A stretch of DNA of 27,876 bases from Alphaproteobacteria bacterium (GCA_017513365.1 JAFXFY010000141.1:1-27876), one strand, 5' to 3'; counted from the stretch's first letter, positions 424-14,734 are shown. Numbers and translations are program-made. Notes: a model not told the origin generated them from the sequence alone.

Positions 424-1608
424 ATGCAATTAAAATTTGAAACTGGCCGTTCTATGGTTGAAATCATTGGTGTTTTAGCGGTTGCTGGCGTATTAAGCAT
501 TGGTGGTATTATGGGGTATTCCTATGGTATGAATAAATATCATGCCAATGAAGCCATTTATGATGTAAATATGCGTATGATTGATGTGGCCACTCATGTG
601 ATGCGAGGTGTACAAATTGACCAATTAGATTCGTCTTGGGGCGAGGCAAAAAGTGGATATGATATTGAATTATTCCACGATTCCGATTCCGAACCATCTA
701 TTATTGTTAAACAAGTACCGACAGGTGTTTGTAAAGAAATTTTAAAGTCTACACCGGATATACAAGATATTTTTGTTGGTTCCGAAAATGCAGACGGAAT
801 GGATGGCAGTTGGTATTTAGGCGACAATGAACACATTTGTGATGGCTCAGATAAAGATATGTTATTTGCTTTATCTCCGGAAATTTTAGCCGGATTTAAT
901 CCGGACGATGAAGCGTATGTTGAACCCGAAGGAACGGCAACAATACCTCCTCAATTAGAATGCTATTCTAATGCCGATTGCCGACCGGATAAACCGATTT
1001 GTGATAATGGTACGTGTGTAGAATGTACCAAAGACAGTCATTGTCCCAGTGACGAACCAAATTGTAATCCAAATACTAAATTGTGTACGGCTTGTTATGG
1101 TGAACCCAATGGGGCTCCTTGTGTGTTAGCCGGCAAAGATTACGAAGGTATGTGTTATGGAGATTCAAATTATGCATGTCTTAATTGGTGTGGTGAAACA
1201 CCATTGGTTGGCAGTTGTTCGTATATGAACAATTACTGTAAAAATCAAGGCGGTCGAGCCACAATTTATCAGTTAATGTTGATTTCGGATAATCCGCTCT
1301 ATTGTCAAACGCAAAAAGCGGCTGGGAATGAAGTTGTAGCTAAGTATGGTAGTAGTGTCGTATATACCTATACTGGAAAATGTCCGGATACCGAACGATA
1401 TAAAGGATTATGGAGTAAATTGAGAAATGGGTGTCCAGATAGAACCGGGAGATATATCAGTAATGTTGACAGGGTTGAAGTCAATAGAAGTGGATCATTA
1501 ACGGGATCTGAATGCGGTTCTGGAAACTGGTGGAGTTCTGGCGCTTGTTATGATGATGTTCAAGCCATCATTGATGCCTATGATGCAGCGAATCCAATAA
1601 CGGAGTAA
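424..1608 (+). CDS. Type IV prepilin-like protein with Cys-rich C-terminal repeats (putative minor pilin/adhesin)
   Basis: SD AAGGAG. N-terminus ETG|RSMVEIIGVLAVAGVLSIGG is a class III signal-like segment with E5 and a hydrophobic helix. Tandem C-x4-DC-x4-P-x-C repeats (ECYSNADCRPDKPIC; ECTKDSHCPSDEPNC). Confidence 0.8.
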   Translation: MQLKFETGRSMVEIIGVLAVAGVLSIGGIMGYSYGMNKYHANEAIYDVNMRMIDVATHVMRGVQIDQLDSSWGEAKSGYDIELFHDSDSEPSIIVKQVPTGVCKEILKSTPDIQDIFVGSENADGMDGSWYLGDNEHICDGSDKDMLFALSPEILAGFNPDDEAYVEPEGTATIPPQLECYSNADCRPDKPICDNGTCVECTKDSHCPSDEPNCNPNTKLCTACYGEPNGAPCVLAGKDYEGMCYGDSNYACLNWCGETPLVGSCSYMNNYCKNQGGRATIYQLMLISDNPLYCQTQKAAGNEVVAKYGSSVVYTYTGKCPDTERYKGLWSKLRNGCPDRTGRYISNVDRVEVNRSGSLTGSECGSGNWWSSGACYDDVQAIIDAYDAANPITE

Positions 1609-4485: not shown

Positions 4486-5043
4486 ATGAAAATAATATAT
4501 ACTTTGATGATAGGAATAGGTCTTATAATGCCGGCATTTTCCGGTTGTGCCGATACTCAGACATTTTTTTTAGCCCCTCAAAAACAAGCCATAGAAACAA
4601 AACAAAGTATTTCCTTTATGGGGGATACATATACGTTTGAGTATGGTGATGAAATTCAAAACGAATATTTTACAAATGGTGAAACGATAGATGGTTTCAG
4701 CTCGTTAATTGCCGTTCATATTTTTAAAAATCATACAGACCCATTGTTTGTTGCTCAAGGATTTTATGATAAATTGTTGGCAGATAATCAAGCTGCTCGT
4801 TTAGCTATTCACCGTTTTTCAAAAGAACCAACATTAATATTTATATTAACATCCGCCCAAGGATTTGAATTGAATTTGTGGCGTTTTTATCGCAATCCGA
4901 ACCGCGATGAAGTTATCGGTATGCAATATTTAAAAACATTTAAAACGCCACAGACCCAAGCCGAAAAAGACAGATTAAAAAGCCTCATTCAGATAATATC
5001 CGAACAATTCGCCATTTTACCTAAAATGCCCTTTATTCGTTAA
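4486..5043 (+). CDS. Hypothetical exported protein
   Basis: Start reassigned from 4381 to ATG 4486. MKIIYTLMIGIGLIMPAFSGCA is a signal-peptide-like (possibly lipoprotein) N-terminus; 4381-4485 contains promoter elements. Confidence 0.7.
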   Translation: MKIIYTLMIGIGLIMPAFSGCADTQTFFLAPQKQAIETKQSISFMGDTYTFEYGDEIQNEYFTNGETIDGFSSLIAVHIFKNHTDPLFVAQGFYDKLLADNQAARLAIHRFSKEPTLIFILTSAQGFELNLWRFYRNPNRDEVIGMQYLKTFKTPQTQAEKDRLKSLIQIISEQFAILPKMPFIR

Positions 5044-5126
5044 GATACAGGAAAAATGGCTTTTTTGTTTTATTAACCATTCGTTAGTAAAAAAGTTCTT
5101 GCAATTTACAAAAAAGTGTGTAAGAG

Positions 5127-5345
5127 TACTTTTTGAAAGTGGCAATGGTGCCATTTTCTGGGCGTCGAAACCCATTTAAAAAGCAGTCGTGTGCACACGA
5201 CTTAAAACAAAAAGCGCTGACTGAAGTCCTGCGGATAACGCATATGAAGGGGCGGATGTCGGTGAATAAGACCTCGGTGTCAAATAAGCCGAGCCATCTG
5301 CTTTTTATGGTTTTCGAACATCCGCCCACCAATGTGGGTTTTTTT
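5127..5345 (+). promoter_or_regulatory. Candidate structured 5' leader / attenuator upstream of the short pilin gene
   Basis: Hairpins at 5136-5157 and 5185-5202 (perfect 18-bp palindrome); helix 5250-5259/5318-5327; terminator CCCAC-caat-GTGGG-T7 at 5325-5345 overlapping that helix. Confidence 0.55.
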
Positions 5346-5381
5346 AATATGTTATAACAAATAAAGAAAGGATGTTTAAAC

Positions 5382-5780
5382 ATGAAAAAATTAGAATCTG
5401 GTCGTTCAATGGTTGAAATGTTGGGTGTATTGGCTATTATTGGCGTACTCTCCATCGGTGGTATCGCTGGGTACTCTATGGCCATGAACCGTTATCGTGC
5501 CAACGAAGTATTGAATGCCGCTCAAATGTTGTCTGTTGTAGCTCAATCTTCAGTGAATAAAACTGGTGATATGACTGAAACTTTGGAAAGCTTAGGTATT
5601 ACTGGTGCTGATGACAATACGATTCATAATTGTACATTGAGTGCCGATTATGGTTCTCCGGCAGTTGAAGTTACAGGTGACAATTGTGATTTAACAACAA
5701 TTGCCAATATCACAGGTAAAACGCATACGACACATATCATTAATGCGAATGGTCAATTAGGTGATCCCGCTGCAAACTAA
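5382..5780 (+). CDS. Short type IV prepilin-like protein (major-pilin-sized)
   Basis: MKKLESG|RSMVEMLGVLAIIGVLSIGGIAGY; 132 aa with a C-terminal Cys pair; SD AAGGA. Confidence 0.85.
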   Translation: MKKLESGRSMVEMLGVLAIIGVLSIGGIAGYSMAMNRYRANEVLNAAQMLSVVAQSSVNKTGDMTETLESLGITGADDNTIHNCTLSADYGSPAVEVTGDNCDLTTIANITGKTHTTHIINANGQLGDPAAN

Positions 5781-13529: not shown

Positions 13530-14480
13530 CTAATTGCCACGACAAACGGCAATATACGCATGATGATTATGTCTTCTTGTTTTTGCTTCTTTAGACAAAC
13601 CACTGGTAATATCGACCATATATGCCGTTGTGCTGTTGACTTGTGTTGCTGTCCAAACGCCTCTTGGATTAGACGCATTAATAAAACCTTTATTTTTTAA
13701 TTCATTCATCAAGTTTGAGGGACCATTTGCGGTTGAATCCCATAGTTCATCTGTTGTTGGTAATCTTTTGCCTAACAGACCGCAAATTTTGTTTGCTTGA
13801 TACCAATTGGGAGTATGTTGCATATTAAACATCCATGCCCAAATAGAACACCACTCTTCCCCATCAATTTCGGCACATTTACGAATACCATACTTTAAAC
13901 ACTCCTCTTTGTTACTTTCTGAACTATATAAGCACGATGTTTCAAAATCACATTCTGTATCACCACATGTTTCAGGTATTCCATAATAAAAAGTCATATC
14001 ATTATCATCATTACATGCCGTGCTATCTCCAACAGCGACAGAATTAATGCTGATTTGGGTAATAGATGTATCCGCCCCTTCTATAATCATTTCGCATACA
14101 TACTTAGGTACACCTAACAGGCTCATGTCTACAGCATCATGTCCGGCAACATATCCGTAATCTCCCCATTCATACCCAACCGTGGAATGGGTTCCCCATT
14201 GGTCTAAATTTAACTCTTGTCCGTTTTCTTTTTGTGTAAGTAAATCAATACTGCGCAAATTGATGTCATTTATGGTGGTATTCGCTCGGTATTTATCCAT
14301 GCCGTAGGAATATCCGGCAATTCCACCGATACTTAACACACCGATAATAGCGAGTGTTCCCAGCATTTCAACCATAGAACGACCGGATTCAGACATTCTG
14401 CTGTCATTCTTGTGCGTAGCGTTAGCGAAGACACGAGAATCCAGTATATTGATTTCTTCTTGTTTAATATTCATAGCCAT
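13530..14480 (-). CDS. Type IV prepilin-like protein with C-terminal C-type-lectin-like (Lcl/DUF1566-type) domain
   Basis: SESG|RSMVEMLGTLAIIGVLSIGG after a long leader; C-terminal NWYQANKICGLLGKRLPTTDEL ... VWTAT ... AYMV ... YIAVC. Confidence 0.8.
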   Translation of the reverse strand: MAMNIKQEEINILDSRVFANATHKNDSRMSESGRSMVEMLGTLAIIGVLSIGGIAGYSYGMDKYRANTTINDINLRSIDLLTQKENGQELNLDQWGTHSTVGYEWGDYGYVAGHDAVDMSLLGVPKYVCEMIIEGADTSITQISINSVAVGDSTACNDDNDMTFYYGIPETCGDTECDFETSCLYSSESNKEECLKYGIRKCAEIDGEEWCSIWAWMFNMQHTPNWYQANKICGLLGKRLPTTDELWDSTANGPSNLMNELKNKGFINASNPRGVWTATQVNSTTAYMVDITSGLSKEAKTRRHNHHAYIAVCRGN

Positions 14481-14700
14481 ATGCTTCCCTTCCTTTGTTA
14501 TTAATAACTAAAACGAAAACCACGCTTTTATAAAAAGTGTGGCTGGAAGTTGAAGACTATTGAAGAGAATAGTGTGGCATATTCGGCATTTCTGCCTATT
14601 TTGCCGCCCTCCAGCCAACGCTGGAAAGCGTATATTTTTCGTCCGCTATCGGACGCTCTTCAAAGAGGTCTTCATACCTCAGGGCAGAATAACTGCCCTG
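14481..14700 (-). promoter_or_regulatory. Candidate structured 5' leader / attenuator
   Basis: Hairpins at 14680-14700, 14665-14680, 14640-14655 and 14610-14625; alternative helix 14610-14617/14540-14547; terminator 14520-14542 with U-tract 14510-14519. Confidence 0.6.
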
Positions 14701-14705
14701 CATAT

Positions 14706-14734
14706 AACATATCAAATATTACACTGTAATGCAA
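14706..14734 (-). promoter_or_regulatory. sigma70-type promoter with a dyad in the spacer
   Basis: Minus strand TTGCAT-17-TATGTT; ATTACA-c-TGTAAT palindrome at 14718-14730. Confidence 0.6.

Follow-up and report, generated by a model that had tools for sequence, protein, structure and literature searches.

A multi-copy, terminator-capped leader RNA of probable c4/sRNA-Xcc1 build upstream of surface-protein genes in an alphaproteobacterium

Positions 5135-5345 of the window, which is the whole stretch of 27,876 nucleotides that was analysed, probably represent one copy of a multi-copy structured leader RNA that is built like the c4 RNA of phages P1 and P7 and like sRNA-Xcc1, and that carries a read-through switch. 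The whole functional leader covers approximately 5135-5345 (about 210 bases) and not just the junction at 5250-5327. Its parts follow the order promoter, H1, H2 (carrying a1), b1, H3, S, junction, and terminator, and those from the promoter to S recur in this order upstream of every copy of the family. Of this explanation, the fold and its covariation are demonstrated, and so are the copy-specific complementarity of the a/b sites, the helices that compete with each other, and the terminator. In terms of build, the element is a C4/sRNA-Xcc1-type RNA converted into a self-pairing, terminator-capped, and highly amplified leader. The family is absent from Rfam 15, and no description of it was found in the searchable literature.

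Promoter, three-way junction, and terminator of the window copy

The features of the window copy, all on the plus strand, are as follows.

5099-5127, plus strand: probable sigma-70 promoter (TTGCAA, 16-nt spacer, TG-extended -10 TGTAAGAGT)
5135-5158, plus strand: H1, 5'-terminal hairpin with a 10-bp stem, GAAAGUGGCA/UGCCAUUUUC, from minimum free energy (MFE) folds; a hairpin of variable sequence stands there in all copies
5160-5173, plus strand: H2, hairpin (GGG/CCC) whose loop carries a1 (UCGAAA, 5165-5170)
5178-5186, plus strand: b1, AAAAAGCAG, perfect complement of the P3 loop b', CUGCUUUUU
5185-5202, plus strand: H3, hairpin formed by an 18-nt palindrome (7-bp stem, 4-nt loop); all copies have a hairpin at this place, with variable sequence
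5217-5232, plus strand: S, switch strand (CUGAC...UCC(U)GC)
5231-5241, plus strand: small extra hairpin, GCG-GAUAA-CGC, between S and P1
5250-5327, plus strand: three-way junction resembling C4/sRNA-Xcc1
5250-5258 with 5319-5327, plus strand: P1, 9 bp, GGGCGGAUG with CAUCCGCCC
5259-5263 with 5288-5292, plus strand: P2, 5 bp, UCGGU/GCCGA
5264-5269 and 5282-5287, plus strand: symmetric internal loop of P2, GAAUAA opposite AAAUAA
5270-5281, plus strand: P2b
5293-5311, plus strand: P3, with the b' loop at 5298-5306
5311-5318, plus strand: J3/1 (a')
5324-5345, plus strand: intrinsic terminator (stem GCCCAC/GUGGGU, loop CAAU, U7)
5367-5384, plus strand: Shine-Dalgarno sequence AAAGGA (5367-5372) and start codon (5382)
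5382-5780, plus strand: 132-aa GRSMVE pilin-like gene, starting 36 nt past the terminator

The three-way junction was assigned by alignment to RF02221 (sRNA-Xcc1), by covariation, and by a covariance model of our own (R1). A permissive Rfam scan of 4900-5500 matched RF02221 to 5250-5335 over model positions 1-87 with a score of 38.2 bits (E value, 3.8e-5), which places the window copy below the gathering score of 53 bits. R1, which was built from the 13 paralogues detected with RF02221 in the source genome, scored the window junction at 96.9 bits. These 13 paralogues share their architecture and differ by compensatory changes; their junctions were 91% paired, with 10 doubly changed pairs. When the junction was followed in related genomes that represent 17 other genera (28 copies), 93.8% pairing was observed and 15 of the 22 pairs had changed on both sides, while none of 500 shuffles matched this result and slid controls were only 28-45% paired. 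G-U pairs are frequent in P1 and P3; therefore, it is the RNA strand that is under selection. Conservation is highest in the internal loop of P2, in which A17, A20, A34, A35, and U36 are invariant and AAUA is kept on both strands across the family, and the G at the start of P1 is also invariant. P2 encloses a small GAC/GUC hairpin (P2b), and J3/1 has a length of 6-7 nt in the conserved family fold. Features of RF02221 present in the family are the 9-bp P1, the AAUA motifs flanking the P2 hairpin, the P3 hairpin, and the U-rich J3/1.

Transcription is predicted to start near 5134-5136. The promoter at 5099-5127 was missed by a consensus scan because its -10 hexamer is weak; in the other copies, a promoter-like TTGCA box accompanied by a -10 box is found at the corresponding position, and the TTG of the -35 box never varies. 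At the other end of the leader, the 5' arm of the terminator shares CCC with the 3' end of P1, giving a 3-nt overlap in the window copy, and an overlap of 2-3 nt was seen in 34 of the 39 copies in which the terminator could be placed. No promoter-like site was found between the terminator and the start codon in the window copy; the pilin-like gene, having no promoter of its own, would therefore be expressed only by read-through. A Pfam search with its 132-aa product gave no match, and NCBIfam gave only sub-threshold prepilin matches.

A preliminary description of this DNA had presented the region as a structured leader of about 255 nt that contains a tRNA-like cloverleaf ending in ACCA, interpreted as an attenuator built on a tRNA mimic, a decayed tRNA, or an independent small RNA. 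Many of its structural elements were recovered. It is indeed the leader of the pilin-like gene, running from the promoter at 5099-5127 to the terminator at 5345 ahead of the start codon at 5382, with the length corrected to about 210 nt. The closing stem, described as 7 bp, exists and is actually 9 bp (5250-5258 with 5319-5327); the terminator, with its hairpin and U-tract at 5324-5345, shares 3 nt with the 3' strand of this stem, as had been noticed; the CCAU/AUGG arm is P3, and the palindrome at 5185-5202 is hairpin H3. Folding was also better than that of shuffled controls, with z = -2.9 for 5250-5345 and z = -4.9 for 5127-5345 (0 of 200 shuffles as good for the latter). As for a confident Rfam assignment, the sole match was sRNA-Xcc1 and it was sub-threshold. 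Several other proposals had to be abandoned. The CUCGG/CCGAG arm is an alternative confined to the window copy and its near-identical paralogue C157 and is not the conserved pairing of the family. Pairing of GGCGGAUG (on the 5251-5258 side) with 5295-5302, which was thought to free the terminator, is absent from the other subfamily-A paralogues, with C157 keeping part of it; instead, the proposed partner stretch belongs to b', with 5298-5306 pairing with b1 at 5178-5186, and the strand that competes with P1 throughout the family is found further upstream (5217-5232). What persists of the attenuator proposal is a structured leader in which a closing helix is set against a terminator and a third partner covaries, but without the tRNA mimic.

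The cloverleaf reading did not hold. ARAGORN detected no tRNA or tmRNA gene in the window, no Rfam family including tRNA reached its gathering score there, the scan of 4900-5500 contained no tRNA at E <= 10, and covariation defined a fold of three helices rather than four, which also speaks against a decayed tRNA. Among the 42 copies, just the window copy and C157 have ACCA after P1, and this tail is attributed to chance; what is constant after P1 is only R-C, the bases of the terminator stem. A tRNA-derived origin, either as a decayed gene or as a true mimic with an acceptor-like end, is therefore extremely improbable, because D- and T-loop signatures are lacking as well, even though the window copy has a G-C-rich closing stem that starts with G and precedes ACCA, and the related C4 precursor is an RNase P substrate (PMC5320573). 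While tRNA identity was refuted, the narrower possibility of RNase P substrate mimicry remains as a candidate, and the earlier guess of RNase P-type ends would fit published C4 processing.

Two observations concern the region around the ribosome-binding site. Sequestration of this site by the leader was considered and rejected for the window copy: pairing of the Shine-Dalgarno sequence with the 5' domain was predicted in several paralogues, and the probability for the window sequence was only 0.16. A palindrome, GTTTAAAC, is located at 5374-5381 between the Shine-Dalgarno sequence and ATG and is also present in C157. Of its 8 positions, 6 agree with a1 (GUCGAAAC), and judged from this similarity it may be a degenerate a2 site.

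Long-range pairings and two conformers of the leader

The recognition segments a' and b' of the junction pair with the 5' domain of the same leader. In the window copy, the a1:a' pairing joins 5165-5170 with 5312-5317 and the b1:b' pairing joins 5178-5186 with 5298-5306. Among 32 paralogues, all six a1:a' pairs were changed on both sides and 99.5% of the cells were paired; about 20 sequence variants occur, and the duplex energy was -9.2 kcal/mol for own partners versus -5.9 kcal/mol for non-own partners. The b1:b' duplex gave family-wide means of -9.2 (own) versus -2.1 kcal/mol (non-own), the own partner ranked within the top 5% in 29 of the 32 copies, and 0 of 10,000 permutations were as good. 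The third pairing involves S, for which the 5' strand of P1 and P2, GCGGA-U-GUCGG (5252-5263), is a possible partner; S thereby competes with the 3' strand of P1 for the P1 5' strand. Column-wise covariation of this duplex is weak (83% paired) since indels shift the alignment, and duplex energies were used instead. Family-wide, the own mean was -15.4 kcal/mol versus -10.8 kcal/mol for non-own partners, and S covaries with both strands of P1; the window copy itself forms a weak duplex (-9.8 kcal/mol), which 27% of non-own partners equal. All three pairings were again own-specific in sampled copies from related genomes, where 0 of 5,000 permutations were as good.

H3 shows compensatory changes relative to C157, an A-rich linker separates H3 from S in family copies, where S stands immediately ahead of P1, and the extra hairpin at 5231-5241 is confined to the window copy and C157 within the source genome.

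The a/b pairings vary from copy to copy. Between the window copy and C157, P1, P2, the P3 stem, a', the P1 3' strand, and the terminator are 100% identical, and the differences lie in b1 (62% identity) and b' (70%), where the changes are compensatory. Relatives that share an a site likewise carry differing b pairs. In phages, the immunities of P1 and P7 are distinguished by divergence concentrated in the recognition helices (PMC5320573). Such divergence of the recognition helices suggests, from sequence comparison, that discrimination between copies matters, and the RNA would therefore be able to act between molecules. When the genome was searched with the a1+b1 address of each copy, any address of sufficient length to be specific found only its own leader, together with the trivial antisense match of a'b'. 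Thus, the address of the junction RNA points to its own 5' domain.

Folding of the window copy gave two states. In the unconstrained MFE structure (-79.3 kcal/mol), S is paired to the 5' strand of P1/P2, the terminator GCCCAC/GUGGGU is fully formed, and b', a', and some of the P1 3' strand are taken up in an extended duplex with the 5' domain. In the junction state, in which H2, P1, P2, and P3 were enforced, the nested energy is -69.2 kcal/mol, and the terminator is unformed because its CCC sits in P1. To this state the pseudoknot helices, which are unscored by the folding program, add about -5.4 and -9.0 kcal/mol (about -14.4 kcal/mol together). The two conformers are thus predicted to be of similar stability and to differ in the terminator, which would correspond to attenuator-type logic. 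As the a1b1:a'b' pairings are present in both conformers, those pairings alone explain no switch. Furthermore, because the terminator and P1 overlap by only 2-3 nt, a frayed P1 and the terminator could coexist.

According to the switch that we propose, completion of P1 would deprive the weak terminator (6 bp here) of its G-C base and raise read-through, while S holding the 5' strand of P1 would allow the terminator to form. By analogy with C4, the junction RNA would perhaps be released by an RNase P cut at G5250 and by termination at 5345, and, each copy having its own a/b sites, a released RNA would be restricted to transcripts from the locus that produced it. The genome encodes a type-A RNase P RNA, and RNase P may process the transcript at the 5' end of P1. 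There is no preference for U immediately ahead of P1, and the 3' tail reads R-C-N, not RCCA; RNase P cleavage is therefore put forward purely by analogy. A further extension, in which each of the approximately 40 leaders is a self-addressed RNA switch and the released C4-like RNA binds only nascent leaders of its own locus and feeds back on the terminator decision there, so that each pilin-like or surface-protein gene has a heritable ON/OFF state and an RNA-based surface variation results, seems to us rather doubtful.

Copies of the leader and their relation to C4 and sRNA-Xcc1

RF02221 gave 13 sub-threshold matches (21-41 bits) in the 1.27-Mb genome of the uncultured source bacterium, in which R1 found 42 copies. 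Of 24 genomes sampled from the same family, 23 were likewise matched by R1, the copy number per genome ranging from 1 to about 50; among 16 other families of the class, 2 gave matches. About 38 of the 42 copies are located 10-45 nt upstream of a co-oriented start codon. The preliminary description had proposed a search for the element upstream of other GRSMVE genes, and it was found there: 24 of the 42 copies precede pilin-like GRSMVE genes at this distance. About 42 genes in the genome encode a prepilin-like N-terminus of the G|RSMVE type, so that about half of these genes have the leader in front of them; it is lacking from the first such gene in the window (424-1608), where R1 gave no match. 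The window contains a second full copy as follows.

14481-14734, minus strand: second full leader copy, with junction and terminator at 14510-14616 (R1, 64 bits; E value, 1.4e-11)

This copy lies upstream of a lectin-like pilin gene ending at 14480 and has its own a1/b1 address, in which AUGAAGAC pairs with GUCUUCA and UUGAAGAG with CUCUUCAA.

About eight copies precede members of a Cys-rich protein family with a Sec signal (approximately 135-185 aa). Most other copies precede lipoproteins or small secreted proteins, and at least one (C196) has no co-oriented gene behind it. The Sec/Cys family shows the motifs ETCANGAG ... KYC ... MNWWNA.AWCDAQG, and examples of its leaders are found at C212:1-253 and C82:5666-6072 and on C223, C224, C57, C208, and C105. 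The type-A RNase P RNA gene (C216:6038-6411, minus strand) is situated approximately 180 nt from, and divergent to, a leader copy at C216:6595-6695 (plus strand).

The closest parallel is the C4 antisense RNA. Published C4 has three stems, uses the recognition segments a' and b', and occludes a ribosome-binding site (PMC5320573); that study, citing Hartmann 1995 and Citron & Schuster, describes C4 as an RNA of approximately 77 nt that RNase P releases from a longer transcript at a GGW located at the 5' end of P1 (PMC5320573). An upstream a1/b1 motif was listed by Weinberg et al. (PMC2864571). The leader resembles C4 in being a three-stem RNA with GG at the 5' start of P1, in residing in the leader of the gene that it precedes, in having a'/b' complementary to a1/b1 upstream on the same transcript, and in the variation of the recognition sequences between otherwise similar copies. 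At the level of Rfam models, the C4 model RF01695 did not match the window copy; it matched four paralogues at 22-27 bits, against a gathering score of 45, and these were its only matches in the genome, all on family elements. The c4-a1b1 model RF03163 had no match at E <= 1 in the whole genome, and sites with a1/b1-like function are nevertheless present. Matches of isrK (RF01394) were at chance level, none on the junctions of the elements.

The leader family differs from C4 in several respects. It is mostly without a2/b2 sites, has an intrinsic terminator directly after P1 and the extra competing strand S, and occurs in approximately 42 chromosomal copies before surface-protein genes, whereas C4 occurs once, in the immunity operon of a phage. 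The source genome gave no support for general a2/b2 sites close to the ribosome-binding site, own and non-own energies showing no difference (-5.9 versus -5.5 kcal/mol for a'; -9.5 versus -9.5 kcal/mol for b'). In related genomes, a' gave a weak signal (permutation p = 0.012) and b' gave none (p = 0.51), and the window copy has none or at best a degenerate version. Part of subfamily A has an a2 site, UUAGAAAA, between the Shine-Dalgarno sequence and AUG, which covaries with a' in one relative (L029).

Similarity to sRNA-Xcc1, known from Xanthomonas integron cassettes, plasmids, and prophages, extends over the whole 87-position model and includes the AAUA motifs and the U-rich J3/1. sRNA-Xcc1 has been detected as a discrete 88-nt RNA in Northern blots (PMC2996969). 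Reports place it immediately before symE and before an ORF6N gene, and a position directly upstream of a co-oriented gene is thus common to both families. In Xylella, annotations of C4, isrK, and sRNA-Xcc1 lie within about 400 nt of one another. Above-threshold RF02221 matches occurred in 24 of 150 other sampled genomes of the phylum (Pseudomonadota), often several per genome. At canonical loci of this kind (L043-L062), the loop of a promoter-proximal a1 hairpin was complementary to J3/1, the P3 loop had a complementary b1 site, and most loci had the arrangement a2-GGAG-b2-AUG, a second site pair bracketing the downstream Shine-Dalgarno sequence. This is the layout of phage P1 c4, and the Rfam model RF02221 is confined to the three-way junction, which makes up the 3' third of a larger regulatory module. 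Canonical loci also have a hairpin at the place of 5231-5241 in the window, and many of them show a conserved hairpin with CCCGUCAG and a U-run. They differ from the leader family in that the canonical loci examined have no terminator after P1, while the leader family has the terminator and is mostly without a2/b2.

The Group 1 C4-like small RNAs of Acinetobacter baumannii (PMC5320573) are comparable in that a large set occurs per genome, with members differing mainly in the recognition loops. These RNAs, which are processed from longer transcripts (PMC5320573), belong to another host class, reach the C4 model, and are not described as terminator-capped leaders of surface genes; pairing with their own 5' part is not reported.

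Alternative explanations and biological meaning

Three further explanations deserve consideration. The element might be the gene of a free-standing, trans-acting small RNA that has its own promoter and intrinsic terminator and regulates other mRNAs. Both of these signals are present, at least one copy lacks a co-oriented gene downstream, and sRNA-Xcc1 itself was described as an 88-nt RNA detected by Northern analysis (PMC2996969). However, this explanation is unlikely given that approximately 38 of the 42 copies stand 10-45 nt before a co-oriented start codon, with no promoter in between in the window copy, and that the specific a1+b1 addresses match only their own leader genome-wide. An explanation as a riboswitch or a protein-binding attenuator would assume that binding to the AAUA/AAUA loop or to the junction stabilizes P1 and causes antitermination of a surface-gene regulon. 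It would account for the internal-loop nucleotides being the most conserved part and for a leader common to approximately 40 functionally related genes. The arrangement of P1, S, and the terminator is, moreover, that of expression platforms: as in riboswitch platforms, T-box leaders, and trp-type attenuators, three helices that would be mutually exclusive (S:P1-5', P1, and the terminator) precede a gene. Yet the Rfam scans revealed no match to a known riboswitch or aptamer family, and the leader differs from those attenuators in having no match to a known sensor domain, no leader peptide, and no tRNA-binding specifier, and in an overlap of only 2-3 nt. The hypervariable, copy-specific a/b helices and the kinship with C4/sRNA-Xcc1 are not riboswitch traits either, and we consider such a mechanism quite improbable, slightly more so than a trans-acting RNA.

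That the element is merely a repeat at the DNA level, such as a mobile element of the MITE or REP type or a recombination site without RNA function, could be imagined from its high copy number (42 in 1.27 Mb) and from the occurrence of sRNA-Xcc1 relatives in integron cassettes and prophages. This appears very improbable, as pairing is maintained through G-U pairs and is thus strand-specific, the orientation to the downstream gene is constant with a tight spacing of 10-45 nt, and promoter and terminator are conserved within the unit; terminal inverted repeats or target duplications were not noticed in passing around the copies.

We therefore favor the c4/sRNA-Xcc1-type leader with a read-through switch. 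The C4/sRNA-Xcc1 design is known as an immunity device of phages and mobile elements that blocks a ribosome-binding site. Here, the design appears to have been rebuilt into a self-pairing, terminator-capped leader, present at roughly one copy per 30 kb, which precedes approximately 40 genes, most of which encode pilin-like proteins or further secreted or surface proteins. RF02221 matches would be better annotated as cis-linked c4-type switches than as free-standing "virulence sRNAs." If the switch works as proposed, surface genes in this little-known lineage with small genomes would be under a major level of control that has gone unstudied.
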